Source: Sporomusaceae bacterium
GTDB taxonomy: Bacteria; Bacillota; Negativicutes; Acidaminococcales; JAJUGR01
Reading direction: 5' to 3'
DNA: 64,000 nucleotides
Assembly: GCA_029265905.1 (NCBI GenBank)
Contig: JAJUGR010000001.1
Span: 112,118 to 176,117 of the forward strand
Of the stretch, positions 9,901-46,171 are shown piece by piece. A program made the translations under genes and the position numbers. The notes under the pieces were generated by a model. That model did not search any database. It was not told where the DNA came from and was given only the letters and a program-made list of their open reading frames with translations. Every line of letters starts with the position of its first letter. Position 1 is the stretch's first letter.

Positions 9901-10061
9901 GCGCCGGCATACTTGACGCTGACCGTGACGTAAGGCGAATTCAGCGCCGGCAGCAGTTCGACGCCGATGCGGCTTAAGCTGAACAGGCCAAGCACCACGC
10001 AAAACAAAATGATCATGCTGATGCCAACCGGGCGTTCAATGGAAAAACGGGTGATGTTCAC
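6918..10061 (-). CDS. Efflux RND transporter permease (AcrB/HAE1 family)
   Basis: 1047 aa with 12-TM RND architecture. The N-terminus 'MNITRFSIERPV' is typical of the family. Confidence 0.9.
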   Translation of the reverse strand: MNITRFSIERPVGISMIILFCVVLGLFSLSRIGVELLPALNSPYVTVSVKYAGAGPKEIEQQVLKPLEDSLSSLSNLKNMTSTATSERGYIVLEFDFKTNADYASIEATKLVNSVRSKLPDDIDEPVVRKRDENAAPIMEISVTSAHSLSDMYTKADNAFSEILSRANGVSDIAVNGGRTKEIAVEVDKDKLYYFKLSLAQFVSAVKGENILLPSGSVYTAKTITDVKMDTQYKGPADIEKLTLTSSSYGTIPLTELATVTAKDQRVDRYSRTNGEDSISLTVYKNSDANVVSTAEGALKQLEILKKEYPDYTFTIVNNSADYVNNALRNTFGTLIEGLITTSLVLFLFLRGWRSTAAVLIAIPTSLISTFFVMYLAGFTFNMMSLMGMTLCVGILVDDSIVVLENIHRHMHLGKDARTAAEEGRNEIGMAAIAITLCDVVVFLPIAFMTGMTGQFFRQFGLTIVFATLFSMFVSFTLTPMLASRLFKSGLTEPSGPVWTRMDRLEKWAIARYEKALRWSLAHAKKVLAVVAAVFFVSVSLIPTGIIGAEYMPKTDESSFRVYLILPEGQNLEQTDLALRKLEQYVLSLPEVTYCLAGAGRPSPNYGNLSVRIVDRKERSRSIWQITDDVRAFARNNITEGSVSVSETQSSIAGVSQSGGSGRPGGSPLRLELRSANMDNLVEASYQVQELLAKTNGVKDINSTYTEGMPELQPVVDRDKLKFYGVGISDVSSALSSAISGKKAGTLVNDPNNDGRDTDIYVRLKSSEAFTASDLISIPISSGTQPILLGQVAEIKEGVGPTLIRRLNKQRAISISANLTDRPLNEVIQELKSVLAAEKFGDRGIEIEFKGQATNMQDTFTEMGQALILSLILIYMLLAVLYESYSTPFIRMFSLPLGLIGSFIFLAVTRNTINLYSLIGILVMDGLVAKNGTLLLDYTLTLMSQGKSAYDALIEAGKARLKPIFMTSLTMVVGMLPTALSMTEGTETRVSMAWVIIGGLLSSTIFTLIIIPIIFLHFDRHPLRLDEKIARLFRKISAAVRGAKTTS

Positions 10062-11356
10062 GTTGTTCCCCCCTTCTTAGGCTGAGGAACAGTCGTATTG
10101 GGCTGCGCATCCGCCTCGCCGGTCGGCGTGACGACGATACCGGTTTTCAGCTTGGCCAGGTTGCTGGCGGCGACAACGGTGTTTGGCTTGAGGCCGGACA
10201 GGATTTCGATGAATTGGTCGTTGCCCATGCCGGTTTTCACTTCCTGCTCAATGGCTTTTTTGTCGTCACCAATGATATACACGAAAGAACGTCCGCTTTT
10301 GGCCAGTACGGCGCTTTTTGGCACCACGAGCGCGGCGGTGCGCAGGGGAACCAGCACTTGCCCGCGAATGAAGAGGCCGCTTTTGAGTTTGCGGTCGGGA
10401 TCGTCGATGCTCAAGCGCACCTTGTAAGACTGCGAGCCGGTTTCCTTGGCGGTGCTGATGAAAATGATTTTGCCGGTAAAGGACTGGCCGAGGGAGGCGA
10501 TTTCGATGCTCGGCGCCATGCCCAGTGCCAGACCGGCGGCTTCCTGCTCTGAAACAAGGCAGTCAACAAACACCTGGCTGTTGTCGACTAATGACAGAAC
10601 TTTTTGCGCCGCCTGGATGAACGAGCCTTCCTCGACCTGGCGGTACACGATCACGCCGTCGCGCGGCGCCCGCAGGGTTAAATCGGAACGCTGTTTTTCC
10701 AGCGCTTCGACAGCGCTGGCGATTTTGCTGGCTGCGGCCCGTTTGACCTCCAGCGAAGCCGGTTCACCGTTTACTGCCTGTTTGGCCAAGGTGTCGAGCG
10801 TGGCCTTGGCGTTAATCATGTTCTGGTAAGCGGCGTCGAGCGTTTCGCCAGAAACAGCGCCTTGTTCAAACAAGGTTTTATAGCGGGTGTAGTTGGTTTT
10901 GTTGCGGTTGTAGTCAACCTCCGCTTTTTGCAGGCTGGCGATGTAGCTGGCTTGCGTCTCAACCAAAGCGGCCTGGGCTTGCCGCAGTTCGGCGTTGCTT
11001 TGGGCGATAGAAAGCGAAATGTCGCCAGTGTCCTGGACGAGCAAAACTTGCCCGGCGGTGACGCGGTCGCCTAATTTGACCGGCACCGAGACAACCCGTC
11101 CCGCGTATTTGGGCATGATGTCGATTTGGGCGTCAGCCACGGTTTGTCCGACCAAGGTGACTTGCCTGTCAAGCGGCTGGATGCGGGCGGTGAATAATTC
11201 AACGCTGATGACGGGCGGACCACCCTTTTTGGCTGGCTGCTTGCCGCCATTTTTCAGCAAGGTCGTGCCGGCAACCGCCAAAAGCAAGATGATAAGGGCA
11301 ATAAGAAAGGACCGTTGTTTTTGCTGGACTATCCGCTTGAATACCGATTGCAACAT
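10058..11356 (-). CDS. Efflux RND periplasmic adaptor (HlyD/MFP family)
   Basis: N-terminal TM anchor, coiled-coil hairpin and beta-barrel regions. Its stop overlaps the RND gene start. Confidence 0.85.
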   Translation of the reverse strand: MLQSVFKRIVQQKQRSFLIALIILLLAVAGTTLLKNGGKQPAKKGGPPVISVELFTARIQPLDRQVTLVGQTVADAQIDIMPKYAGRVVSVPVKLGDRVTAGQVLLVQDTGDISLSIAQSNAELRQAQAALVETQASYIASLQKAEVDYNRNKTNYTRYKTLFEQGAVSGETLDAAYQNMINAKATLDTLAKQAVNGEPASLEVKRAAASKIASAVEALEKQRSDLTLRAPRDGVIVYRQVEEGSFIQAAQKVLSLVDNSQVFVDCLVSEQEAAGLALGMAPSIEIASLGQSFTGKIIFISTAKETGSQSYKVRLSIDDPDRKLKSGLFIRGQVLVPLRTAALVVPKSAVLAKSGRSFVYIIGDDKKAIEQEVKTGMGNDQFIEILSGLKPNTVVAASNLAKLKTGIVVTPTGEADAQPNTTVPQPKKGGTT

Positions 11357-11521: not shown

Positions 11522-12199
11522 ATGAACGCGACAATTTTAGTGGTGGATGATGAATATCGGATGCGCAAACTGGTGGGCGATTTTCTGCGCAAGGCCGGTT
11601 ACGACGTGGTGGAGGCGGAGGACGGGCAAGGGGCGCTGGCGCTGTTGACGCCGGCGATCGACCTTGTCATTTTAGACGTGATGATGCCGGGACTCGATGG
11701 TTGGGAGACCTGCCGCCAAATCCGCGCTCAGGGTGAGACGCCGGTGATTTTGCTGACGGCCAGGAGCGAGGAAGCGGATGAACTGCAGGGGTTTGCCGTT
11801 GGGGCGGACGAATATATCGCCAAGCCGTTTAGCCCACAGGTGCTGGTTGCACGGGTGCGGGCGTTGTTGAAGCGGGTGCGCTGGAGCGCCCGGAACGAAG
11901 TTGGTGTCAGCGAATACGGCCGGCTCAGGATCGCCGCCGGCGCGCATGAAGTGTTCTGGGACGGAAAGCCGCTTGAACTGACTCCGAAGGAGTATGACCT
12001 GCTTTGCTATTTGGCGGAGCACCGGGGGCGGGCGCTAAGCAGAAAGCAATTGCTGGACCAGATCTGGGGCTATGATTATTTTGGTGACGGTCGGACGGTC
12101 GATACGCACATCAACCGTTTGCGGATCAAGCTGGGCGAGGCCAGCGGGTTCGTGCAGACCGTGCGGGGCTGGGGATATTTGTTTGAGGTGGCGAAATGA
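11522..12199 (+). CDS. Response regulator, OmpR/PhoB family
   Basis: REC domain ('ILVVDDE', 'LDVMMPGLDG') plus a winged-helix C-terminus ('VRGWGYLF'). Confidence 0.9.
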   Translation: MNATILVVDDEYRMRKLVGDFLRKAGYDVVEAEDGQGALALLTPAIDLVILDVMMPGLDGWETCRQIRAQGETPVILLTARSEEADELQGFAVGADEYIAKPFSPQVLVARVRALLKRVRWSARNEVGVSEYGRLRIAAGAHEVFWDGKPLELTPKEYDLLCYLAEHRGRALSRKQLLDQIWGYDYFGDGRTVDTHINRLRIKLGEASGFVQTVRGWGYLFEVAK

Positions 12200-13698
12200 A
12201 CGATTCCGTGGCGAAAAAACTGTTCTGGGGCATGGCCTGCCTGATCCTTTTTCATGTGGGCTTGAATTGGTTGCTGAACGCGCAGCTGCTGGAACGCTAT
12301 TACCTGTACGCGAAGGAAACGCAGTTGGTTGAGCAAGGACGCGCCCTGGCGCTGTCTTATGAGCGGGGGCCGGAAGATGTGCAGGTGATGATTGAACAAC
12401 TGGAGGCGGGCGGCATTTCCGTTTTCATCACCGCCGCCGACGGGAGCGAGCGGTACAGCTCCATCAAGCGGCTGACGTCGGGCAGTGGTTTGGCTGACGG
12501 GGGGGGAGTCGAAGCTGGTGCCCCGCAGCGGCGGATAAGCGATTATTTTGTCCGTCGTCGACAGGCGGTCGACAAGGACATCACGCTGGAGTGGCAGCAG
12601 GATCCGGTGGTGAGCAAGACGAACCTGGCGATGGAAATGCGGCTGGACAATGGCGACCGGCTGCGCCTTTGGCGGCGATTGTCTTCGGTGGCGGAAAGCG
12701 CCGCTTTGATCAACCACTTTATGATGCTGACCGGCGGCGTGAGCTTACTGGTCGGCCTGGCCTGGATCATTTTTTTCACGCGCCGCTTTACCGCGCCGAT
12801 TGTCGGGTTGCGCAATGCGGCGCAGGCGATGGCCAGACTGGATTTTTCCCGCAAATGCCGGGTGAAAGAGGGGGACGAGCTTGGCGAATTGGCCGTTAGT
12901 CTGAATGACTTGTCCGAGCGGTTGGCGGAAACGATCCAGGCGCTGTCTGACAAGAACAAGGCGCTGACCAAGGCGGTGGAGCGGGAGCGAGAGCTGGACG
13001 GCCTGCGCAAATCATTCATTGCCAATGTTTCGCATGAATTAAAGACGCCGATTGCCTTGATATTGGGCTACGGAGAGGGGTTGCGGGCGAATGTCGCCGA
13101 GGACGAGGCGAGCCGCCGCTACTACAGCGAGGTTATCATTGATGAGGCGAAAAAAATGGACAAGCTCGTCAAGGAACTGCTGACGCTGGCTAAAATGGAG
13201 TCTTGCAGCCAGCCTTTACGGTTGGCGCCGATCGCGGTTGATCGGTGGCTGCTGCAACTGCAGCCTAAAATGACGGCCTTGGCCAAGGAACGCTCGGTCG
13301 ACTTGTCCGTGGATTCGGCAGCGGCCGAGGTTGTGATCGATGTGGATAAGCTAGAGCAGGCCGTGATGAATTTAGCCAGCAATGCAATTTGCCATGCCGC
13401 CGGGGAAGAGAAGACGGTGCGCATCAGCACGGAAGCAAGAAACGGCTGGGTTCGCCTGTCGGTCTTTAATTCCGGCGCGCCGATTCCGGACAAGATACAA
13501 AATTGTCTTTGGGACAGCTTCTATCGCGCCGATGAAGCGCGGGTCAGGGAGACGGGACGCGTTGGGCTGGGCCTTTCGATTGTTCGGGCGATACAGGAGC
13601 GGCACGGCGCGGCGTATGGAATGGAGAACGTCGAAGGCGGCGTACGTTTTTGGCTTGACTTGCGGGTGCAGGATGGGGGCTTGAGTGAACCGGCTTAA
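12196..13698 (+). CDS. Sensor histidine kinase (TM-HAMP-HisKA-HATPase)
   Basis: H-box 'NVSHELKTP' and an N/G-box C-terminal catalytic domain. Start overlaps the regulator stop. Confidence 0.9.
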   Translation: MNDSVAKKLFWGMACLILFHVGLNWLLNAQLLERYYLYAKETQLVEQGRALALSYERGPEDVQVMIEQLEAGGISVFITAADGSERYSSIKRLTSGSGLADGGGVEAGAPQRRISDYFVRRRQAVDKDITLEWQQDPVVSKTNLAMEMRLDNGDRLRLWRRLSSVAESAALINHFMMLTGGVSLLVGLAWIIFFTRRFTAPIVGLRNAAQAMARLDFSRKCRVKEGDELGELAVSLNDLSERLAETIQALSDKNKALTKAVERERELDGLRKSFIANVSHELKTPIALILGYGEGLRANVAEDEASRRYYSEVIIDEAKKMDKLVKELLTLAKMESCSQPLRLAPIAVDRWLLQLQPKMTALAKERSVDLSVDSAAAEVVIDVDKLEQAVMNLASNAICHAAGEEKTVRISTEARNGWVRLSVFNSGAPIPDKIQNCLWDSFYRADEARVRETGRVGLGLSIVRAIQERHGAAYGMENVEGGVRFWLDLRVQDGGLSEPA

Positions 13699-21270: not shown

Positions 21271-22533
21271 ATGATGGTCTGGATTGGTGTGCTGATTATC
21301 GCGATTGCCATTTATTTTTTGGTGAAACAGGCGGAAACCAGATTGGTTCTTCTGGTGGCCGGCTTTGCCATGGCAACCATTGCCGGTACACCGATGGCGG
21401 CTTTCAAGTCGTTTTCCCATGGCATAGCGGAATACAAGCTCTTTGAAACCATTATCACCGTTATGGGCTTTTCCATGGTTATGAAAATGACGGGTTGCGA
21501 TCAGCACTTGATCCACTTGCTGGCGAAGCCGGTCCGCAAGGCTGGGCCGCTCTTGATTCCAGTCGCTACCTTCGCCACGTTTCTCGTCAACAGCACATTG
21601 ACGAGCGCGGCTGGCGCCGCTGCGGCCGCCGGGGCGATCATCATTCCGCTCTTGCTGGCCTCCGGCGTTCATCCGGCGGTTGCCGCCGCGGCCGTGCTGG
21701 GCGGTACGTACGGCTCCATGTTCAACCCCGGCTACGCCATGAATGCGCTGGTCGCCAACGTTGCCAAGGCCGAGGCGGTGGCAGTTGTCGGCAACCATTT
21801 CCTTCCGCTGCTGATTACCTGCGCCGTCAGCGCCCTGACGCTGGGCGCGCTGGCCTATGTCCGCAAGGAGAACAAAGGCTGGGGCGAGGTGAAAGCCGGC
21901 GCGGTCAAGGATGACACCTTCCAACTGAGCTACTTGAAGGCGTTTGTGCCGGTTGTGCCGCTTATTCTGATTTTGGTCGCCAACTCCAAAATGGTGCCGG
22001 CCTTGAAAGAGCTGTATATCTCGCACACGATGCTGATCGGCGCGTTTGTCGCGTTTTTGGTCTCGCGGCAAAATCCAGGCAAGATCGCCAAGGAATTTTT
22101 CCATGGCATGGGCGACGCGTACGGCCATATTTGCGGCATCATCATTTGCGCGTTGGTGTTCGTTGACGGCATGAAAGCGCTCGGCATGGTTCAAGCGCTG
22201 ACGCAGTCCATGATTGCCCATCCGGAAGTGGCCAAGTTCAGTTCGGGGTTCGGACCGTTTTTCCTGGCCGTCATCTCCGGTTCCGGCGATGCGGCCGCCA
22301 CCGCCTTCAACAAGGCCGTCACGGTCAACGCCGCACAGTTTGGCCTGCAGCCGCTGAACATGGGCAGCCTCGCCGTGTTGGGCGGTGCGCTGGGGCGTTC
22401 AATGTCGCCTCTTGCCGGCGCGGCGATCATTTGCGCCTCGTACGCCGGCACCAGCCCGATGGAAGTCGCCAAACGCAATGCCCCCGGCATGGTGCTGGCC
22501 TGCCTTGTTGCGACCTACCTGCTTGTTTATTGA
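21271..22533 (+). CDS. DcuC-family anaerobic C4-dicarboxylate-type carrier
   Basis: 420 aa, polytopic. By eye it resembles E. coli DcuC in the 'MGFSMVMKMTG...LAKPV' region. Confidence 0.6.
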   Translation: MMVWIGVLIIAIAIYFLVKQAETRLVLLVAGFAMATIAGTPMAAFKSFSHGIAEYKLFETIITVMGFSMVMKMTGCDQHLIHLLAKPVRKAGPLLIPVATFATFLVNSTLTSAAGAAAAAGAIIIPLLLASGVHPAVAAAAVLGGTYGSMFNPGYAMNALVANVAKAEAVAVVGNHFLPLLITCAVSALTLGALAYVRKENKGWGEVKAGAVKDDTFQLSYLKAFVPVVPLILILVANSKMVPALKELYISHTMLIGAFVAFLVSRQNPGKIAKEFFHGMGDAYGHICGIIICALVFVDGMKALGMVQALTQSMIAHPEVAKFSSGFGPFFLAVISGSGDAAATAFNKAVTVNAAQFGLQPLNMGSLAVLGGALGRSMSPLAGAAIICASYAGTSPMEVAKRNAPGMVLACLVATYLLVY

Positions 22534-22542
22534 TGATTTATA

Positions 22543-22581
22543 AAGAAACCATCGCTCGTGCCGGGCGATGGTTTCTTTTTG
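22543..22581 (+). terminator. Rho-independent terminator after the carrier gene
   Basis: Stem aaagaaaccatcgc / gcgatggtttcttt followed by a T-run. Confidence 0.85.
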
Positions 22582-22646
22582 CTTGCCCTAGTAATTAATG
22601 CTGCCTTCCGGTATAATATATGTGTCGTTTCGAAGGAGAGGATTTG

Positions 22647-23360
22647 ATGTCGGACGTGAAAGTGAATGATGGCGGCCCTTGGTACGGACGGGTGGCGTTG
22701 CGGACCGGAGGGTCGTTTGTTTTGCTGCTGCTCTGCTTTTTATGGTGGCGGCCGGCGATTATGCCCCTGCTGCAGGAGTATGTGGCTAAGGCCGGAATCT
22801 GGGGGCCGCTGGTGTATGTCTTGTTTTATACGTTGCGGCCGTTGGCGGCCCTGCCGGCGTTGCCGTTCAACCTTTCCGCCCCGCTTTTTTTTGGCCCGCT
22901 CTTGGGCGCGGCCTGCATTGTTGCCGGGGGGCTGGGGGGCGCGCTTGTCTGCTTTTGGGGGGCGCGCCGATTGGGCGACCGCTTCTCGGACAAGGTCGCC
23001 TTGCTTCCGTTGCTGGCACGTTGGCAGCGCAAGCTGCATGAAGACAGCCTGGGGGCGGTGCTCTTCTTGCGCCTGACGCCGATTTTCCCTTATGATCCTG
23101 TCAGCGTGGCGCTGGGGCTGTCGCCGGTTTCGACGCGGACTTACCTGACCGGCACGTTTTTAGGCATGCTGCCCGGTGCCATCGCTTATGGACTGGGCGG
23201 CTCGCTTTTGCGCGGCTCGCTTGACTGGACGGACTACGTGCTGGTTTTTGTTTTCTTCGCGCTGGCGTTTGGTGTGCCTGTGTGGTGCTACCGGCGGCAA
23301 CTGCTGGCGGCGGGGCTGGTGCAAAAAGCTGGCCGCTGGTGGCGCTTGCGGAAGCTGTGA
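22647..23360 (+). CDS. TVP38/TMEM64 (DedA superfamily, SNARE-associated) membrane protein
   Basis: 'RLTPIFPYDPVSVALGLS' core motif. AAGGAGAG RBS precedes ATG 22647. Confidence 0.75.
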   Translation: MSDVKVNDGGPWYGRVALRTGGSFVLLLLCFLWWRPAIMPLLQEYVAKAGIWGPLVYVLFYTLRPLAALPALPFNLSAPLFFGPLLGAACIVAGGLGGALVCFWGARRLGDRFSDKVALLPLLARWQRKLHEDSLGAVLFLRLTPIFPYDPVSVALGLSPVSTRTYLTGTFLGMLPGAIAYGLGGSLLRGSLDWTDYVLVFVFFALAFGVPVWCYRRQLLAAGLVQKAGRWWRLRKL

Positions 23361-23380
23361 GGCCCGGGACAATTGGATGG

Positions 23381-23836
23381 ATGGGAATGGTGAAGGTTAT
23401 TAAGAAGGAACAAATGAGGCAATTGCTGCGCTTTGGCTTGGTCGGCGCCAGCGGGGTCGGTGTCAATCTGGCCGTTTTTTCAACTGCTTTATGGGCCGAC
23501 GCCGGTTACCAGGCGGCGGCGGTCGCGGCCTTTTTGGTTGCGGTCAGCCACAATTTCTATTGGAATGCGCGCTGGACGTTCCGCCTTTTGGCGCAGACGA
23601 ATAAAAGAATGTTCACCCGTTATCTGTGGTTTGTGGGGATCAGCGCGGTGTGCTTGCTGTTGAATTTGCGCGTCCTGTCTATGCTGATTGACGATTGGCG
23701 CTTGCCGCCGGTTGCGGCGCAGATCGGCGCGGTTGTAGTGGTGGGGTTTGTTAATTTTTGGCTTCAGGCGAGGATGACCTTCCGGGGCGCTGCGCCGGCG
23801 CTGGCCAATAGTGATAAGGCGGTGGACAACGGATGA
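23381..23836 (+). CDS. GtrA family membrane protein (lipid-linked sugar translocation)
   Basis: 'LLRFGLVGASGVGVNLAVF' N-terminus, four TM segments, about 150 aa. The start is ambiguous (23381, 23387 or 23414). Confidence 0.75.
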   Translation: MGMVKVIKKEQMRQLLRFGLVGASGVGVNLAVFSTALWADAGYQAAAVAAFLVAVSHNFYWNARWTFRLLAQTNKRMFTRYLWFVGISAVCLLLNLRVLSMLIDDWRLPPVAAQIGAVVVVGFVNFWLQARMTFRGAAPALANSDKAVDNG

Positions 23837-24546
23837 GACTGGTCGTGATGCCTACCTACAATGAACGTGAAAATATCGAACCGATGGTGGAAGCAGTATT
23901 GGCCTACCCTTGGCTGCACATGCTGGTGGTGGACGATGCTTCGCCGGACGGCACAGGGCAGTTGGTGAAAAAACTGGCGCAGGAGCGGTTTGCCGGACGC
24001 TTGTTTCTATTGGAGCGGAGCGGTAAGCTGGGGCTGGGAACGGCTTACGTGGCCGGTTTTAAGTGGGCGCTGGAGCGGGACTATGACGCGGTGTTTGAAA
24101 TGGACGCCGACTTTTCGCATAACCCGGCCGATTTGCCGCGCCTGAATGAGGCGCTCAAGGCGGCCGACGTGGCGCTCGGCAGCCGCTATGTAAGCGGCGG
24201 CGGCGTTGAAAACTGGGGGCTGGGCCGGCGCGTTTTAAGCCGCGGCGGCAGCTTGTACGCCCGGATTATTTTGGGCTTGGACGTGAATGACGTGACCGGC
24301 GGCTTCAAAGCGTTTCGCCGCGCTGTGCTGGAGGCGCTGCCGCTTGACAAAGTGCGCTCTAACGGCTACTCCTTTCAAATCGAGCTGAATTATCGCACGC
24401 GGCAAAAGGGCTTTCGCATTGCCGAGGTGCCGATCCTGTTCGCTGACCGGCGGGTGGGCGCCTCGAAGATGAACAGGCGCATTGTTCTGGAAGCGATTAC
24501 GCTTGTCTGGCAGCTCCGCTGGGCAAGTTTGCGAGGCCGCCTATGA
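23833..24546 (+). CDS. Polyprenol-phosphate glycosyltransferase (GT2, DPM1/ArnC-like)
   Basis: 'VVMPTYNERENI' and 'VVDDASPDGT' motifs. Start is coupled to the upstream stop. Confidence 0.88.
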   Translation: MRLVVMPTYNERENIEPMVEAVLAYPWLHMLVVDDASPDGTGQLVKKLAQERFAGRLFLLERSGKLGLGTAYVAGFKWALERDYDAVFEMDADFSHNPADLPRLNEALKAADVALGSRYVSGGGVENWGLGRRVLSRGGSLYARIILGLDVNDVTGGFKAFRRAVLEALPLDKVRSNGYSFQIELNYRTRQKGFRIAEVPILFADRRVGASKMNRRIVLEAITLVWQLRWASLRGRL

Positions 24547-25934
24547 AGCAGCGGCCTCTTTTTTTCCTGGCGCTGATGGCGCTGTTTTCCCTGTGGTTTA
24601 ACGCTACGCTGCCGCTTCATTTTGACGAGGCTTACTATTGGCTTTGGTCGCAGCATCTCGCTGCGTCTTACTTTGACCATCCGCCTATGATCGCCTGGCT
24701 GCTGTGGCTGGTACAGGTGTTCGGAAAATCGGAGTGGGTGCTGCGGCTTGTGCCGGCCTGCTGCATGACGGTCACGGGTTTCCTCCTCTATCGCTTGGCA
24801 AAGCGCTCCTTCGGCGAAGCAGTGGCGGAACGGGCCCTGCTCCTGTATCTTTTTTTGCCGCTGACGCAGCTTGGCTTTTTGCTGGCCGTGCCGGATGCGC
24901 CGCTGGCGCTCGGGTGGGTGCTGCTCATGTCAGCCGGTTACGAAGCGGCGTTTGGCGCGCGCTGGCGGCGGTCCATGCTATTGGCCGGTGCGGCGGCAGG
25001 TTTTGCCTTGCTGGCCAAATATACGGCCGTTGTGGCCGTTTTGAGCCTGTTTGTTTTCTTTCTCTTCTCGCCTGTGCGCGCCAGGCTGCTGTCGGTTTCT
25101 TTTCTTGGCTCCGCCGCCTTGGCGGCGCTGGTTTTCTCGCCGGTTTTGTACTGGAATTACCAGCATGACTGGGTTTCCTTCCGTTTTCAGCTGGCGCACG
25201 GCGTGGCGGCGGAAAAAGTGTTTCAGCCCGCCTATCTGCTTGAATTTGTCGGCGGCCAGCTAGCCGTTGGCGGCGTATTTACAGCTTTGGCGCTGTTTTA
25301 CTTGGCGTTTCGCTATTGGCGGCAACATTTCGCCCAGCCCAAACTGTTATTTTTCTGGTGCTTTTCGATCATTCCGATCGGCTTTTTCATGCAGGCCGCC
25401 GCTTTCAAGCGCGGTGCGGCGAACTGGCCGGCGCCGGCTTTTTTGGCCGGGTGCGTGCTGGTTGCCTATTGGAGCCTGCGATTGAATTGGCATCGCTGGT
25501 ATAAGGCGGCGCTGGCGTTCGGCGTGCTGCTGCTGGTAGTGGCGAAGCTTCCGGAGTGCCTGCCTTTTCTTCCGGAAAAGGTTGTGCCGAAGCAGCGGTT
25601 TTTAGGCTATAAAGAAGCGATCACGGCTTTGCCCGCAGCACATCCGGAGGCGTGGCTGGCAGACAGCTACAAGGCGGCCAGCCTCCTGGCCTACTACGGA
25701 GGGCGCTTGGACGTCGACGTCCTAGACTCGGACCGGCCTTCCATGTTTGACTATTGGCGCAAGGAGGCGGCGCTTCCGGAGCGGGCCCTGTTTGTGACCA
25801 GCCGCGACAAGCGCGAGGCAGCGGCGACGTATTACCGGCAGGTGACGGCATTGCCGTCCGGCGGCGCGCGCTTCGGGTTTGACAAGCAGGGCTTTTTTCT
25901 CTACCAGTGTGAAGGTCTGCAACGGGGGCGATGA
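24543..25934 (+). CDS. Glycosyltransferase family 39 (ArnT/PMT_2-like)
   Basis: 'HFDEAYYWLWSQHLAASYFDHPP' signature loop. Polytopic, 463 aa. Confidence 0.85.
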   Translation: MKQRPLFFLALMALFSLWFNATLPLHFDEAYYWLWSQHLAASYFDHPPMIAWLLWLVQVFGKSEWVLRLVPACCMTVTGFLLYRLAKRSFGEAVAERALLLYLFLPLTQLGFLLAVPDAPLALGWVLLMSAGYEAAFGARWRRSMLLAGAAAGFALLAKYTAVVAVLSLFVFFLFSPVRARLLSVSFLGSAALAALVFSPVLYWNYQHDWVSFRFQLAHGVAAEKVFQPAYLLEFVGGQLAVGGVFTALALFYLAFRYWRQHFAQPKLLFFWCFSIIPIGFFMQAAAFKRGAANWPAPAFLAGCVLVAYWSLRLNWHRWYKAALAFGVLLLVVAKLPECLPFLPEKVVPKQRFLGYKEAITALPAAHPEAWLADSYKAASLLAYYGGRLDVDVLDSDRPSMFDYWRKEAALPERALFVTSRDKREAAATYYRQVTALPSGGARFGFDKQGFFLYQCEGLQRGR

Positions 25935-26064
25935 GCGCTGCAGTTGTTTGTTTGGCGGCATGGTTCAGGGCAGGCGAAAAGGAAATGCCCGGCGCTGCGC
26001 GAATAACAAAAGAGTAGGGACTTATGCCTTGAAACGATGCGGCTGACGAAGGGGAGGGCAAACC

Positions 26065-39981: not shown

Positions 39982-41103
39982 TCAGGCTTGGAAAAGCCGG
40001 GTGACGCGGGGGGTGATCAAGCAGGTCAGCTCGTAATTGATCGTGCCGGCCAAGTCGGCCAGGTCGGTGAAGGTGATGGTCTCGTCGCCGCTTGTTCCCG
40101 CCAAGGTGACCGGTTCGCCGACACCGAAAGCGGGCGTTTGGGGACCGAGGTTAACCATCATTTGATCCATGCAGACGCGGCCTACGACGGGATAGCGCCG
40201 GCCTCGAATCAGCACCTCTGCCTGGTTGGACAGGTGGCGCGAGTAGCCGTCGGCGTAGCCGACCGGCAAGGTGGCGATGTAGGTGCGCTCGGTTGTGGTA
40301 TAGGTGGCGCCGTAGCTGATCGGCACGCCGGCTTCGACTTCTTTGAGGTAGACGATTTTTGTATACCACTCCATGACCGGCTTCAGGTCGGCCATCAGCG
40401 GAGCGAGCGCGGGCGCTGGCGGCAAGCCGTATAAAATGATGCCGGCCCGCACCATGTCGGCGTGGGTGGCCGGAAGCTGCAAGATGGCGGCGCTGTTGGA
40501 GAGGGTCTGCAGTCCAGGGGCGAGGCCGGCCTGCGCCAGTTGCGCGCAGGCGCTGAAAAAACGCTTGGCCTGGAGGTCGGCGAGCCGAGAACCGCCGGGT
40601 TCGTCGGCTGTGGCAAAGTGGCTGAACACGCCGACGCGAACCAACTCGGGGTAATCCGCCACGGCTTTGGCTAGGGCGACAAGTTCGGTCGGCAATACGC
40701 CGATCCTGCCCATGCCCGTATCAACGGTTAGCATGACCGGGACTTGGCAATGAAAGCGCCGAGCAGCGCCGGCCAGGGCGGAGAGGGCGGCCAGGGAGGA
40801 AACGGTGGCCGTCAGGTTGTAACGGCAGTAGCAGTCGGCTTGCTCCGGCAGCGACAGGCCCAGCACCAGGATCGGGGCGGTGATGCCTGCCTCCCGCAGC
40901 TCGGCGCCTTCCTCCGGGCAAGAAACGGCCAGGTGGGACGCGCCGGCGGCCAGTGCGGCTTTGCTGACGGCAACGGCGCCATGGCCGTAGGCGTTGGCTT
41001 TTACGACGGCCATGACTTTGGTGTCCGGCAGGAGCCGCTGGCGGATTTGCTGCAGGTTGTGGGCAAGATGGTCAAGACGGATGACGACGTGGGTGGGCCG
41101 CAT
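39982..41103 (-). CDS. alr: Alanine racemase
   Basis: PLP-lysine motif 'AVVKANAYGHGA'. 373 aa. Confidence 0.93.
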   Translation of the reverse strand: MRPTHVVIRLDHLAHNLQQIRQRLLPDTKVMAVVKANAYGHGAVAVSKAALAAGASHLAVSCPEEGAELREAGITAPILVLGLSLPEQADCYCRYNLTATVSSLAALSALAGAARRFHCQVPVMLTVDTGMGRIGVLPTELVALAKAVADYPELVRVGVFSHFATADEPGGSRLADLQAKRFFSACAQLAQAGLAPGLQTLSNSAAILQLPATHADMVRAGIILYGLPPAPALAPLMADLKPVMEWYTKIVYLKEVEAGVPISYGATYTTTERTYIATLPVGYADGYSRHLSNQAEVLIRGRRYPVVGRVCMDQMMVNLGPQTPAFGVGEPVTLAGTSGDETITFTDLADLAGTINYELTCLITPRVTRLFQA

Positions 41104-41223
41104 ATAATCACTCTTTCCGTGTTGATTTCAGGTGGTTCTCTGTTATACTCAATACTATACGACGATTGCATTGCTTTTGCAAAAATAAACTGCGCGGGCC
41201 GCAAGCGCGCAAAGGAGTGTCAC

Positions 41224-41700
41224 ATGCTGCGCATAGAAAGTTTTTCCGACCGTGAAACAAGCGAAATCGGCGCCCGGCTCGGTTGCCTGCTGCGTGCCGG
41301 CGACGTGGTTACGCTGGACGGCGAACTGGGAGCGGGGAAAACGACTTTTTCGCAAGGGTTGGCGAGGGGTCTGGGGGTAACCGAGATTGTCAACAGTCCG
41401 ACGTTTACGATCATGAATATTTATGAAGGTCGCGTCGCCTTGGCGCATTTTGACTGGTACCGCCTCGAGTCGGAAGAAGAGCTCGACTGTTTGGAACTGG
41501 AACGGGTCTATGGGCAAAATCAGGTAACCTTGATTGAATGGGCGGATAAATTTGCCGATGCGCTGCCGGCGGAACGGCTGGCGGTTCGGTTGGAATACGG
41601 CGGACAGCCCGACAGCCGAGTGATCACCATCATGCCGCTTGGAAAGCGCTACGAAGAACGATGTGAGGAGATGGCAAAAAGTGCTGGTTGCAGGGATTGA
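41224..41700 (+). CDS. tsaE: tRNA t6A37 biosynthesis ATPase TsaE
   Basis: 'LDGELGAGKTTF' P-loop and 'HFDWYRL' motif. The track ORF from 40744 is an extension antisense to alr. Confidence 0.9.
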   Translation: MLRIESFSDRETSEIGARLGCLLRAGDVVTLDGELGAGKTTFSQGLARGLGVTEIVNSPTFTIMNIYEGRVALAHFDWYRLESEEELDCLELERVYGQNQVTLIEWADKFADALPAERLAVRLEYGGQPDSRVITIMPLGKRYEERCEEMAKSAGCRD

Positions 41701-42385: not shown

Positions 42386-42846
42386 TTGTCAGACGGTGGG
42401 AGAAAGCGGATTTGGAGGCGGTGCTGGCGGTTGAGGAGGCGGCGTTCGGCCACCCTTGGAACCGCAGCGCCTTTGAAGAAGAACTGGACAACCCGGTAGC
42501 CAATTATTTCGTCCTGGAACAGGCGGGGCGCATCATTGCCTACGGCGGTTTTTGGCTTGTGCTTGATGAAGCGCAAGTGACCAATGTGGCCGTGCACCCG
42601 GACTATCAAGGGCGGGGTCTGGGGAAAAAACTGCTGTCGGCTTTGCTGGATACGGCGGCGGAACTGGGCGCGGTCAGCTTCACGCTGGAGGTGCGCCGCT
42701 CAAATAAAGCCGCGATCAAACTGTATGAAGGCGCCGGCTTGCGGGTGCAGGGCGTTCGGCCGGGGTATTACGCTGATACCGGCGAGGATGCCCTCTTGAT
42801 GGGCTGCACCTGGCATGCGGAGCCGGAAGAAGAAGGGGAAGCGTAA
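42358..42846 (+). CDS. rimI: Ribosomal-protein-alanine N-acetyltransferase
   Basis: GNAT motif 'VHPDYQGRGLGKKLL'. Position is conserved between tsaB and tsaD. Confidence 0.85.
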   Translation: MGEETAGPIIVRRWEKADLEAVLAVEEAAFGHPWNRSAFEEELDNPVANYFVLEQAGRIIAYGGFWLVLDEAQVTNVAVHPDYQGRGLGKKLLSALLDTAAELGAVSFTLEVRRSNKAAIKLYEGAGLRVQGVRPGYYADTGEDALLMGCTWHAEPEEEGEA

Positions 42847-43862
42847 TGTCTGATTGTATCATTCTAGGCGTTGAGTCGAGCTGCGACGATACTTCCGCCG
42901 CGGTTGTCAAAAACGGGCGGCAGGTGTTGTCCAACATCATCGCCTCGCAAATACCGATCCATCAAAAATACGGCGGCGTCGTGCCGGAGATCGCATCGCG
43001 CAGCCATGTCGAGGCGCTGCTGCCGGTGATTGACGAGGCGATCAAGCAGGCCGGCGTGCAAAAAAACGACCTTTCCGCCGTTGCCGTTACCTATGGGCCC
43101 GGCTTGGTCGGGGCGCTGCTGGTCGGCTTGTCGGGCGCGAAAAGTCTGGCTTGGAGCCTCGATCTGCCGCTCATCGGGGTCAATCACCTGGAGGGGCATG
43201 TATACGGGAACTTCTTGTCGCATCCTGATTTGGAGCCGCCGTTTTTGGCGCTGGTCGTGTCGGGCGGACACACCTCGCTATTGGCGGTGCCTGACTATGA
43301 GACCTTTCAAACGATCGGACAGACCCGCGATGATGCGGCGGGGGAGGCCTTCGACAAGGTGGCGCGCGTGATGGGGCTGCCTTATCCAGGCGGTCCGGAA
43401 ATCGATCGCTTGTCAAAAGCCGGCGATAAAACGGCGATTGCCTTCCCGCGGGCGCTGGCGGACGCGCCGTACGACTTTAGCTTCAGCGGTCTCAAGTCGG
43501 CCGTCATCAATTATCTGCACCATGACCGTCAGACGGGGCATGTGACGCCGCCGGCTGATGTGGCGGCCAGCTTTCAGGCGGCGGTGGTTGATGTGCTGGT
43601 GGAAAAAACGCTGCGGGCCGCCGCCGACCACGGGTTCGAGACGGTTGTCATGGCGGGCGGCGTTTCCGCCAACAGCGCCCTGCGCGAAGCCTTGGCGGCT
43701 GAGACGAAGCGCCGCGGCCTGCGCTTCCTCTATCCCTCGCCGCTTTATTGCACTGACAATGCCGCAATGATCGCCTGCCGAGGACACTACTTGTTCCAGC
43801 AGGGGAAAACCAGCGACTGGCGGCTTAATGCTGTTCCGGGTTTGGCGCTGGGTAAATTGTGA
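42846..43862 (+). CDS. tsaD: tRNA N6-adenosine threonylcarbamoyltransferase TsaD
   Basis: 'ILGVESSCDDTSAAVV' N-terminus and 'HLEGH' metal motif. Confidence 0.95.
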   Translation: MSDCIILGVESSCDDTSAAVVKNGRQVLSNIIASQIPIHQKYGGVVPEIASRSHVEALLPVIDEAIKQAGVQKNDLSAVAVTYGPGLVGALLVGLSGAKSLAWSLDLPLIGVNHLEGHVYGNFLSHPDLEPPFLALVVSGGHTSLLAVPDYETFQTIGQTRDDAAGEAFDKVARVMGLPYPGGPEIDRLSKAGDKTAIAFPRALADAPYDFSFSGLKSAVINYLHHDRQTGHVTPPADVAASFQAAVVDVLVEKTLRAAADHGFETVVMAGGVSANSALREALAAETKRRGLRFLYPSPLYCTDNAAMIACRGHYLFQQGKTSDWRLNAVPGLALGKL

Positions 43863-43881
43863 ACAACAGCTGGGATTAACC

Positions 43882-44038
43882 TGTGGATAATGTGGGTAAG
43901 TCGCCTGGTTGGAGAAAAAACGCTTTGTACAGCGAGTTGCTGGCTTGTGGATAATGTGAACAAGTCGGTGGATAACAATGGGGAAATGTGTGGACAAGCA
44001 AAATGTTAAAACGCAATCGATGGATGTGTTTTTCCACA
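43882..44038. promoter_or_regulatory. DnaA-box cluster (2 perfect, 4 one-mismatch and 1 two-mismatch boxes)
   Basis: Perfect TGTGGATAA at 43882-43890 and 43946-43954. One-mismatch boxes: TGTGGgTAA 43891-43899, gGTGGATAA 43967-43975, TGTGGAcAA 43989-43997, and TTtTCCACA in the opposite orientation at 44030-44038. Two-mismatch box: TGTGaAcAA 43955-43963. Confidence 0.75.
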
Positions 44039-44082
44039 GGACGATCGCTGATCGTCCGCGGGATGGCGGGGAGGTGGCAGCT

Positions 44083-45495
44083 ATGAGAGCACGTATGCGC
44101 TGGGAAGGTTTGACGGACGAGCAAATCCGCCGCATTCGCCTGGTGTTGAGCGGATTGAATTTAGCCAGCGATTTGTCGCACGCGTTGGTGACGCTATATG
44201 TCCTGCCGCCGAACGGACGTAAAATGTGGATCGCGGGGCAGGCGCAGCCGGAGACCGGGTTTGTCCCGCACCGGGCGGCGGAAGAGGAACAGCCGACCTC
44301 TTTGCTGGAAGAGCCGCTGGTGTGGCGAAGTATCGTCAGCCGGCGCCACATTATCGGCAAACGCGAATGGGCGTTGGGCGTTTTTTTGGATATGCAGGTG
44401 TATCCGCTCCTTGACGGTGATAACCAGCCGTTTGCGGCAGTTTCGTTTGAGGTGGGTTCCAGCGAAACGGAACTGCCGGAGCAGCAAGTTTTCATTGAAA
44501 TGGCGTACCGGTTCCTGAGCGGTTTGCAAAAGCCGGTGCAGGGCAAGGCCTACGACCGACTGTCGCCGCGTGACGGGTTGGTGGTGGTGGAAAAATCGGG
44601 CCGTCTTGTCGCCGCCAACGATACGGCGAAGAATATTTTTAGCGTGATCGGCGCCACGCATATCGTCGGACGCCGCATCAGCGACCGGCAGATTCGGTTG
44701 GGTTTTGTGCGCAATTCCTTTTACACGGGCGAGCCGGAGCGGGCGGAGGTGGAAAAGCATAACCTCGTGATCGCGCTGCGTACGATCCCGGTGCTGGTCG
44801 ACGGCAGCCCGGAATGGGTCGTCGTTGTTCTGACTGACGTGACGGAGCTGAAAAAGAAAGAGCAGGAGCTCTTGATTAAGTCGGCCGTCATCCAGGAAAT
44901 TCACCATCGCGTCAAAAACAACCTGCAGACCATCGCCTCGCTGTTGCGGCTGCAGGCGCGGCGCACCGATTCGCCGGAGGTTAAGGCCGAACTCAAGGAA
45001 ACGATCAACCGCATCTTGAGCATTTCCGTCGTGCACGAATTTTTGTCGCAGCAGGATGAGGAAGTCATCGACGTGGCCGTTGTAGCGCGCAACATTTTCG
45101 ATGTTATTATTGAGAACATGCTGGATCCTTCGCTGGAGCTGCAAACCTCGTTCGAGGGCGGGACGATCGTTCTGCCCTCCTGGCAGGCGACGAGCATCGC
45201 TCTGATGATTAACGAACTGACGCAAAATGCCATTGAACATGCGTTTGTCGGCCGCAGCAAGGGGTTTATCGGCGTGCGGATCACGGCGGATGAAAAAGGC
45301 TGCAACGTCGAGATTTATGACGACGGCATCGGTTTGCCGGACGACTTCACGATCGGTTCCAGCCGCAGCCTGGGGCTGCAGATCGTCAAGACATTAGTGG
45401 AGAGCGACCTTGGCGGAACGATCCGGATGTTCAACGACAACGGGACGCACGCGGTTATCTGGATACCAACGGACAGGGAGGAGAGATCAGCATGA
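44083..45495 (+). CDS. PdtaS-like sensor histidine kinase (N-terminal sensor, PAS, HisKA_2, HATPase)
   Basis: HisKA_2 H-box 'EIHHRVKNNLQ'. No TM segments. GGGGAGGTGG RBS precedes ATG 44083. The track start at 43978 lies inside the DnaA-box region. Confidence 0.8.
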   Translation: MRARMRWEGLTDEQIRRIRLVLSGLNLASDLSHALVTLYVLPPNGRKMWIAGQAQPETGFVPHRAAEEEQPTSLLEEPLVWRSIVSRRHIIGKREWALGVFLDMQVYPLLDGDNQPFAAVSFEVGSSETELPEQQVFIEMAYRFLSGLQKPVQGKAYDRLSPRDGLVVVEKSGRLVAANDTAKNIFSVIGATHIVGRRISDRQIRLGFVRNSFYTGEPERAEVEKHNLVIALRTIPVLVDGSPEWVVVVLTDVTELKKKEQELLIKSAVIQEIHHRVKNNLQTIASLLRLQARRTDSPEVKAELKETINRILSISVVHEFLSQQDEEVIDVAVVARNIFDVIIENMLDPSLELQTSFEGGTIVLPSWQATSIALMINELTQNAIEHAFVGRSKGFIGVRITADEKGCNVEIYDDGIGLPDDFTIGSSRSLGLQIVKTLVESDLGGTIRMFNDNGTHAVIWIPTDREERSA

Positions 45496-46073
45496 GCAGT
45501 TTGCGCATTGTCATCGCCGATAATGAATCAATTATTCGTATGGATTTAAGGGAACTGCTCATTGAGGCAGGGCACGAGGTGATCGCCGAAGCAGCCGACG
45601 GCCGCCAGGCGGTCGAATTGGTCCGGCGTCACCGGCCGGACCTGGTCATCATGGACATCAAAATGCCGGAGATGGATGGCTTGGCGGCTGCGCGCATCAT
45701 TTCGGATGAGAAAATCGCCCCGGTACTGCTTCTGACGGCATACAGCCAGAAGGAAATTGTCGAAAAAGCGAAGGAGTCCGGCGTATTGGCCTACCTGGTC
45801 AAGCCGGTCAAAGAGGAAAACCTGTTCCCGGCCATTGAGATCGCCTTGTCGCGTTTCCAGGAATTCATGTCATTGGAGCATGAATTGGAGGGGCTCAAAA
45901 CGTCGCTGGAAGCCAGAAAACTGCTTGACCGCGCGAAGGGCGTGCTGATGGACGCCCATGGCTTGACGGAGAGCGAGGCGTATCGCCGCATCCAGCAGTA
46001 CAGCATGGCGAAACGAAAATCAATCAAGGAAGTGGCACAGGCCATTGTGACGGCGGCGACCCGCTCCCGCTAA
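45492..46073 (+). CDS. ANTAR-domain response regulator (PdtaR-like, REC + ANTAR)
   Basis: REC ('IVIADNE', 'VIMDIKMPEMDG') plus ANTAR ('KLLDRAKGVLMDAHGLTESEAYRRIQQYSM'). Confidence 0.88.
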   Translation: MSSLRIVIADNESIIRMDLRELLIEAGHEVIAEAADGRQAVELVRRHRPDLVIMDIKMPEMDGLAAARIISDEKIAPVLLLTAYSQKEIVEKAKESGVLAYLVKPVKEENLFPAIEIALSRFQEFMSLEHELEGLKTSLEARKLLDRAKGVLMDAHGLTESEAYRRIQQYSMAKRKSIKEVAQAIVTAATRSR

Positions 46074-46089: not shown

Positions 46090-46117
46090 AGCCCCGAAAG
46101 GGGCTTGATTTTTTTTT
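46090..46117 (+). terminator. Rho-independent terminator after the ANTAR regulator
   Basis: agcccc-gaaa-ggggct followed by tgaTTTTTTTTT. Confidence 0.85.
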
Positions 46118-46144
46118 CTTCAGACGTTAATATAAATAATGTGA

Positions 46145-46171
46145 TTAGCACTCGCAGTCGTTGAGTGCTAA
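46145..46171 (+). promoter_or_regulatory. CIRCE operator (HrcA binding site)
   Basis: Perfect TTAGCACTC-N9-GAGTGCTAA, 50 nt upstream of groES. Confidence 0.93.

Follow-up and report, generated by a model that had tools for sequence, protein, structure and literature searches.

In E. coli, the datA locus titrates DnaA, promotes the hydrolysis of DnaA-bound ATP and needs an IHF site. For oriC, Richardson in 2016 reportedly described a basal unwinding system composed of tandem DnaA boxes, DnaA-trios and an AT-rich element. The parts of this system have been defined (Pelliciari 2021; PMC8287927).

The closest described system is one of the six B. subtilis DnaA-box clusters that lie outside oriC, the gcp-ydiF cluster DBC[gcp-ydiF] (PMC2533591; PMC3245932), for which our account draws on Ishikawa 2007, Okumura 2012 and Smith and Grossman 2015. 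It is bound by DnaA in ChAP-chip experiments in B. subtilis (PMC2533591), and in vitro its 10 sites are bound with a Kd of ~0.15 µM, ATP-DnaA binding 16-fold better than ADP-DnaA, a preference known only for the B. subtilis cluster (PMC4447404). The earlier note on this DNA had described the gcp(tsaD)-ydiF spacer as a DnaA-binding cluster outside oriC, which is correct (PMC2533591; PMC3245932; PMC4447404), and as one that helps to control initiation, a contribution that is weak for this particular cluster. Deletion of all six clusters leads to early initiation, but deletion of gcp-ydiF alone leaves the oriC/terC ratio unchanged (0.99), and re-insertion of the cluster at 353 degrees in the six-fold deletion strain brings no rescue (1.35 versus 1.37; PMC3245932). 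The null single deletion and null re-insertion thus leave a pure titration role weakly supported for this cluster. It lies between two 3' ends, an arrangement that its authors call uncharacteristic of transcriptional regulation, and its conservation downstream of gcp in Bacillaceae was reported in 2007 by Ishikawa et al. (PMC2533591). The idea of a cluster at this site is therefore not new, and the cluster described below extends a known element; our literature search found no paper that extends the conservation beyond Bacillaceae.

The window, by which we mean the whole 64-kb stretch of DNA analysed, encodes tsaE, tsaB, rimI and tsaD, followed by a spacer, a HisKA_2/GAF_PdtaS kinase, a REC-ANTAR regulator, groES and groEL, and these Pfam assignments agree with the tsaEB-rimI-tsaD ... 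groESL order proposed in the earlier note. Direct reading of the sequence likewise confirmed that tsaD (ending at 43862) and the kinase ATG at 44083 are separated by 220 bp, with GGAGGTG before the ATG. The kinase matches HisKA_2 (3.5e-23), HATPase_c and GAF_PdtaS (4e-6; 27.2 bits versus a cut-off of 23.7) and the regulator matches Response_reg (5.6e-27) and ANTAR (1.6e-20), the domain content of a PdtaS/PdtaR-type two-component system. An intrinsic terminator (AGCCCC-GAAA-GGGGCT, then a T-run) at 46090-46118 ends the kinase-regulator unit after the ANTAR regulator, and a perfect CIRCE operator (TTAGCACTC-N9-GAGTGCTAA) at 46145-46171 precedes groES; the kinase-regulator pair and groESL are thus separate transcription units. 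The mechanically called tsaE open reading frame (40744-41700; 318 aa, TTG start) overlaps an alanine racemase gene on the opposite strand (39982-41103), and since relatives are annotated with a 158-aa TsaE, its true start is probably near 41220. A tsaC-linked cluster was also considered and set aside, as the TsaC query used matched no TsaC-like gene in the window.

The nearest named TsaD proteins (~66% identity) belong to Acidaminococcaceae, Succiniclasticum and Negativicutes, and GroEL and the regulator are 86% and 80% identical, respectively, to their Pelosinus counterparts. An AcrB-family RND transporter and an HlyD-type adaptor are encoded at 6918-11356 on the minus strand. The host is best read as a Negativicutes-like diderm Firmicute, a reading that the efflux pair and the protein similarities fit. 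The label "distant high-GC Firmicute" in the earlier note needs this qualification.

Table 1. Positions in the 64-kb window of the DnaA boxes, their modules and the neighbouring features.
Feature	Position	Strand	Remarks
tsaD (gcp)	42846..43862	+	last in tsaE-tsaB-rimI-tsaD operon; Pfam TsaD E=6.8e-102
Weak DnaA box TGTGAACAA (+ strand letters)	43858..43866	-	overlaps tsaD stop codon; one mismatch to TTATNCACA; eighth box
Module 1	43882..43903	-	perfect box, abutting one-mismatch box, then GTCG; third box decayed
Perfect box TGTGGATAA	43882-43890	-	TGTGGAT invariant across all relatives
One-mismatch box TGTGGGTAA	43891-43899	-	relatives carry TGGGGATAA or TGTGCACAA
Linker between modules	43904..43945		poorly conserved sequence, fixed length
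Core three-box module TGTGGATAA-TGTGAACAA-GTC-GGTGGATAA-C	43946..43976	-	starts 0, +9, +21; one orientation
Perfect box TGTGGATAA	43946-43954	-	invariant in 5/5 relatives
Middle box TGTGAACAA	43955-43963	-	two mismatches to TTATCCACA, one to TTATNCACA
One-mismatch box GGTGGATAA	43967-43975	-	invariant in 5/5 relatives
Sixth same-orientation box TGTGGACAA	43989..43997	-	43 bp (~4 turns) from core perfect box
Reverse-orientation one-mismatch box TTTTCCACA	44030..44038	+	no relative keeps a box there
8-bp hairpin GGACGATC-GCT-GATCGTCC	44039..44057	+	just 5' of kinase ribosome-binding site; read from sequence
PdtaS-like histidine kinase (44083-45495) and REC-ANTAR regulator (45492-46073)	44083..46073	+	co-directional with tsaD, 3' of cluster

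We took as reference boxes TTATCCACA, its reverse complement TGTGGATAA and the degenerate consensus TTATNCACA. Reading the sequence directly, we found all seven DnaA-type 9-mers where the earlier note had placed them, and also the two copies of a 22-nt module (at 43882 and 43946) that it had described as lying 64 bp apart; the copies are 86% identical. The cluster is intergenic, inside the tsaD-kinase spacer, and its first perfect box begins 19 bp past the tsaD stop codon. At the weak box that overlaps this stop codon, TGTGAAnAAC is retained in relatives, and the constraints exerted by the coding end and by the box are inseparable there.

This concentration of boxes departs strongly from expectation. 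Three perfect boxes occur in the window where 0.14 are expected, and boxes with no more than one mismatch number 13 where 6.9 are expected; six of these 13 are packed into 157 bp. In 200 simulated sequences of 64 kb, generated under a first-order Markov model, no stretch of 160 bp held more than two boxes. The Poisson probability of at least six boxes is 4e-14, or 2.5e-9 when corrected for all start positions, and the probability of at least three under the dinucleotide composition of the spacer itself is 5e-5. A lone perfect box (TTATCCACA on the minus strand, 13341-13349), with no neighbouring boxes, occurs within a gene for a HAMP/HisKA histidine kinase (12196-13698).

A rule derived by Ishikawa from ChAP-chip DnaA-binding sites in B. 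subtilis scores four successive boxes by the value A, their summed affinity divided by their mean distance, with stable sites having an A above 0.3 (PMC2533591). Under this B. subtilis-derived rule, the best quartet of the cluster (43946-43997) has a mean distance d of 6.3, an affinity sum of 7 and an A of 1.11. No other part of the 64-kb window exceeds 0.3, the runner-up reaching 0.01. In the window, the enrichment for which the earlier note had proposed a test is seen in this score and in the Poisson estimate alike. With eight boxes that differ from TTATNCACA by at most one mismatch, the cluster lies within the sequence part of the definition of a B. subtilis DBC (at least four such clustered boxes and an A above 0.3).

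Placed beside DBC[gcp-ydiF], the cluster shares position, content and density. Both follow immediately on tsaD, where a tsaE-tsaB-rimI-tsaD operon ends, and are located outside oriC, both comprise ~8 boxes with at most one mismatch to TTATNCACA, both are closely packed (d of 6.3 here versus 5.3; A of 1.11 versus 0.94) and both are conserved in relatives. They differ in that the cluster here has two perfect boxes rather than four, belongs to a Negativicutes-like host rather than one of the Bacillaceae and is predicted from its sequence. The neighbouring gene differs as well, being a co-directional PdtaS/PdtaR-like operon here and the convergent ABC-F gene ydiF in B. subtilis, so the present cluster occupies a possible promoter or read-through zone whereas the B. 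subtilis cluster separates two 3' ends. A convergent ydiF-like flank is absent here and was found only in sampled Bacilli (L054, L064 and L071). Such a flank gives the B. subtilis locus its name and is no part of what defines DnaA binding.

We asked how the spacer compares among close relatives, which were collected by protein search (TsaD at least 90% or ~87% identical) on contigs with the same gene order. Seven such loci (L081, L082, L084 and L096-L099) carry the cluster, and in the alignment of relatives the boxes form conserved islands in an otherwise diverged spacer, the outcome that the earlier note had anticipated. Invariant positions make up 44 of 54 in the boxes versus 24 of 166 elsewhere in the spacer (Fisher p=2e-19), and mean identity to the window is 87% at box positions and 45% at the remaining spacer positions. 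The offsets from the tsaD stop codon (+19, +83, +92, +104 and +126) and the spacings between boxes are identical and gap-free in the relatives. The middle box of the core module varies among relatives solely at the fifth position, the known degenerate N of TTATNCACA; one further mismatch is peculiar to the copy in the window. The offset of the box at 43989 does not differ in any relative, where the box reads TGTGGATAA or TGTGGATAG. The boxes are under purifying selection. At the 44030 site, the relatives read GTTTCCACG, TGTTGGAAG, ATTTTGCAG and CCATACAAG, and the reverse-oriented box there probably falls outside the conserved element. Of the seven-box cluster described in the earlier note, then, the six boxes in a common orientation are conserved and the reverse box is kept in no relative. 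Relatives in which groES directly follows tsaD have no cluster.

The conserved part of the element comprises six boxes of one orientation in two modules 64 bp apart, with starts at 0, +9, +21 and +43 relative to the core perfect box. The spacing between module starts (65 bp in one relative) corresponds to ~6 helical turns, and the starts at 0, +21, +43 and -64 are near whole numbers of turns. The linker contains an A-run (43915-43920), present as 5-7 A in four of five relatives and missing from L082, that could act as an intrinsic bend aiding cooperation between the two modules.

That the repeats are a product of chance, or sites for a non-DnaA regulator that recognises a TGTGGATAA-like word, is highly improbable in light of these comparisons. 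Chance is excluded by the clustering statistics, and the repeated word matches the universal DnaA consensus exactly. The variation tolerated among relatives falls at the N position of that consensus, and an origin close to dnaN (L089, below) has the same array of words. The spacer also has no Rfam match and no notable RNA structure; an RNA element was rejected as a candidate, as there was no match at the gathering score or at E<=1 and the fold z-score was -1.8. We conclude that the spacer after tsaD very probably contains a genuine DnaA-binding cluster.

A DnaA-box array of this density might also be a replication origin, a second origin or the decayed relic of one. The three-box module is the same as that found beside DnaA-trios in a real oriC (L089), and GAACAACAG at 43861-43869, 12 bp from the box at 43882, formally fits the loose (NAN)3 form of a trio (rule from PMC8287927). 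However, this stretch shares bases with the tsaD stop codon and does not resemble TAG, and the match has been lost from L096 and L081. The spacer, at 49% GC, has no TAG repeats and no AT-rich block (the 27-mer lowest in GC is 30% GC and includes a box). GC skew is positive over all 64 kb, with no switch, and a tblastn search of the window found neither dnaA nor dnaN, which upholds the statement in the earlier note that the cluster lies away from both; the DnaA query was validated against Pfam. Two marks of an oriC, three or more DnaA-trios no further than 16 bp from a box and an adjoining AT-rich unwinding element with a GC-skew switch, are thus absent. An origin or relic was rejected on the absence of a skew switch, of dnaA/dnaN, of an AT-rich block and of conserved trios, and we give this reading scarcely any weight. 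No parS site within two mismatches, sought as a marker of origin proximity, was found near the cluster. AT skew in the window ranges from -0.27 to -0.30 at 22001-26000, where four co-directional open reading frames lie (22620-25934), versus about +/-0.1 elsewhere.

The L089 locus (positions 1335-1720; metagenome contig OIYG01019880.1) is a true oriC. It combines AT-rich DNA, (TAG)5 DnaA-trios and TGTGGATAA-TGTGGATAA-nnn-GGTGGATAAC directly upstream of dnaN, which is split by a frameshift in the contig; further boxes in both orientations lie beyond the module. The cluster after tsaD and the basal unwinding system thus have in common head-to-tail tandem boxes in one orientation and, as L089 illustrates, the same three-box layout. 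They differ in that the spacer has no conserved DnaA-trios, AT-rich element, skew switch or adjacent dnaA/dnaN. Since L089 shares the module, the tsaD cluster has a box geometry of the origin type without the parts required for unwinding (PMC8287927).

We next turn to the distribution of the cluster beyond close relatives. The long-range sample comprised 589 kb around 80 Firmicute tsaD loci among the matches listed, with TsaD at most 65% identical, and a cluster was defined as at least three boxes in 160 bp, at least one of them perfect. Nine clusters were found among the matches listed. Six of them follow tsaD at a distance of 0-450 bp, another two are situated 2.5-2.9 kb past tsaD, where a convergent ydiF-like ABC-F gene has its 3' end, and the ninth precedes the tsaD stop codon by 1.4 kb. 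Distant carriers include L019, L023 (Thermincola), L028, L037, L054 (Bacillaceae), L066 (Staphylococcaceae) and L091; the carrier lineages include Aliicoccus, Jeotgalicoccus, Paenibacillus and several uncultured Firmicutes. The layout that recurs after tsaD is TGTGGATAA-TGTGnATAA, usually with a third box nGTnGATAA 3 bp on, and box orientation is mostly common to all, with TGTGGATAA on the tsaD strand. The same core three-box module follows tsaD in L023, L037 and L091, and variants of it do so in L019, L028, L054 and L066. The conservation in a distant lineage that the earlier note had proposed is thus supported by the same layout after tsaD in Thermincola, Bacillaceae, Staphylococcaceae and uncultured Firmicutes.

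What follows the cluster differs from one carrier to the next. In the uncultured L019, tsaD, kinase and regulator follow one another as in the window, with groES further downstream, whereas the cluster precedes lgt in Thermincola ferriacetica and a convergent ABC-F gene in Pseudalkalibacillus, like B. subtilis. The Staphylococcaceae cluster is immediately after tsaD, and that of Paenibacillus is 2.8 kb downstream, at the 3' end of an ABC-F gene. The two clusters at a distance from tsaD, L064 5166-5304 (Jeotgalicoccus) and L071 7804-8039 (Paenibacillus), are separated from it by an ABC ATPase gene and a glyoxalase-family gene (L064) or by a LeuA-like gene (L071). These intervening genes are unrelated, and the insertions fell on the tsaD side of the cluster. 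The element is tied to the tsaD neighbourhood and not to any downstream gene, and it is old or has been recruited repeatedly.

When metagenome DNA was scanned blindly for the three-box pattern, five matches emerged. One is the L089 oriC, and L091 (TsaD 53% identical) is the sole match adjacent to tsaD; the remaining three (L087, L088 and L090) have no TsaD or DnaA match, and L088 carries a LytR-family gene.

The cluster is missing from Pelosinus, Anaerovibrio and Megamonas (A of at most 0.02) and from all sampled Lachnospiraceae, so the element is dispensable. Pelosinus and Anaerovibrio share the tsaD-kinase-regulator order of the window with no boxes in the spacer, and groESL also lies downstream of these genes in Pelosinus and A. 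lipolyticus.

The position of the cluster in the window raises the possibility of a local role. No intrinsic terminator is predicted after tsaD. A promoter-like TGTACA-18-GATAAT at 43926-43955 is a weak match; its GATAAT, which resembles a -10 element, falls within the invariant perfect box (43946-43954) and is intrinsic to that box. Weak -35-like hexamers are properly spaced from GATAAT in three of four relatives, the -35 element is not conserved, and no promoter is predicted in the spacer of L096. The hairpin before the kinase (Table 1) lacks a T-run and is thus no intrinsic terminator. L096 retains the hairpin with non-compensatory changes and L081, L082 and L084 lack it, which makes it lineage-specific, and a block of ~40 nt around it is well conserved solely in L096, the nearest relative.

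An alternative account of the cluster makes this local role its main one. The array would be a DnaA-dependent operator or roadblock of the PdtaS/PdtaR-like operon, comparable to DnaA repression of dnaA, ywlC and yydA in B. subtilis, and any effect on initiation would be incidental. The cluster occupies the sole space available for a kinase promoter, tsaD lacks a terminator while the kinase-regulator unit has a clear one, the -10-like GATAAT is embedded in an invariant perfect box, and DnaA is well established as a regulator of transcription at other clusters (PMC2533591). The resemblance to the B. subtilis dnaA, ywlC (tsaC), yydA and sda operators, where boxes overlie promoter elements, extends to this GATAAT; the difference is that the promoter here is predicted and the cluster is conserved regardless of the downstream gene. 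The account is unlikely, as the cluster remains beside tsaD or the 3' end of an ABC-F gene irrespective of the next gene, which is lgt in Thermincola and a convergent ABC-F gene in Bacilli, and Pelosinus and Anaerovibrio retain the kinase-regulator pair after tsaD without boxes. The unconserved -35 and the placement of the B. subtilis cluster between two 3' ends, noted above, also speak against it. Since the downstream genes vary and the spacers of Pelosinus and Anaerovibrio are free of boxes, local transcription control is ruled out as the conserved role. A promoter role for the PdtaS/PdtaR-like genes, to which the earlier note pointed in saying that the cluster sits where their promoter should be, is thus possible for this lineage and is not the conserved one.

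The reading that we prefer, with a probability of about 0.7 for the explanation as a whole, is that the spacer contains a secondary, non-origin DnaA-box cluster that is the positional counterpart of B. subtilis DBC[gcp-ydiF]. Judging from DnaA biochemistry and the B. subtilis example, the two perfect boxes would nucleate DnaA binding, and ATP-DnaA would spread cooperatively from them onto the abutting weaker boxes to give a stable, non-productive oligomer. The boxes have neither DnaA-trios nor an AT-rich unwinding element beside them, and the complex would therefore not open DNA. The oligomer would keep a pool of DnaA from oriC and, together with other such clusters, would damp or delay initiation. 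Buffering of DnaA in this manner has, in our analysis, an even chance of being the role for which the cluster is selected. The proposed behaviour is similar to that of E. coli datA, another non-origin cluster of DnaA boxes thought to restrain initiation by engaging DnaA. The IHF site and ATP hydrolysis are datA features, whereas the present cluster is a feature recognised from its sequence; the two loci also differ in genomic context and have no homology outside the boxes.

In this lineage, the bound array may additionally act on transcription. Because tsaD lacks a terminator and is followed by a co-directional operon, bound DnaA could be a roadblock to read-through from tsaD, a repressor of the weak GATAAT promoter, or both, and either would tie expression of the PdtaS/PdtaR-like system to DnaA status. 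We consider it possible, if somewhat doubtful, that the cluster also controls transcription into the kinase operon.

A bolder view, which we regard as a long shot, is that the tsaD-adjacent cluster is an ancient, phylum-wide Firmicute cis element, an origin-type array stripped of its unwinding parts, kept for a function that laboratory phenotypes in B. subtilis have failed to reveal, and that it has been co-opted here as a DnaA-responsive gate of the PdtaS/PdtaR-like operon. One candidate function under this view is the coupling of DnaA-ATP status to the t6A tRNA-modification operon, in line with ywlC/tsaC, the other t6A gene, being a direct DnaA target in B. subtilis too; another is a part in local chromosome architecture.

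The gain made here is incremental, in that a known element is extended and no new mechanism is put forward. What is added is its reach over several Firmicute classes, a conserved three-box geometry common to origins and the existence of natural loss lineages. The same geometry and orientation in a Negativicutes-like lineage, in Thermincola and in non-Bacillaceae Bacilli argue that the element is old and selected rather than a Bacillus curiosity. Lineages that lost it within an otherwise identical gene order (Pelosinus and Anaerovibrio), together with a cluster that here precedes a co-directional operon, provide handles on whether such an array serves as a sink for DnaA, as a roadblock, or as both.
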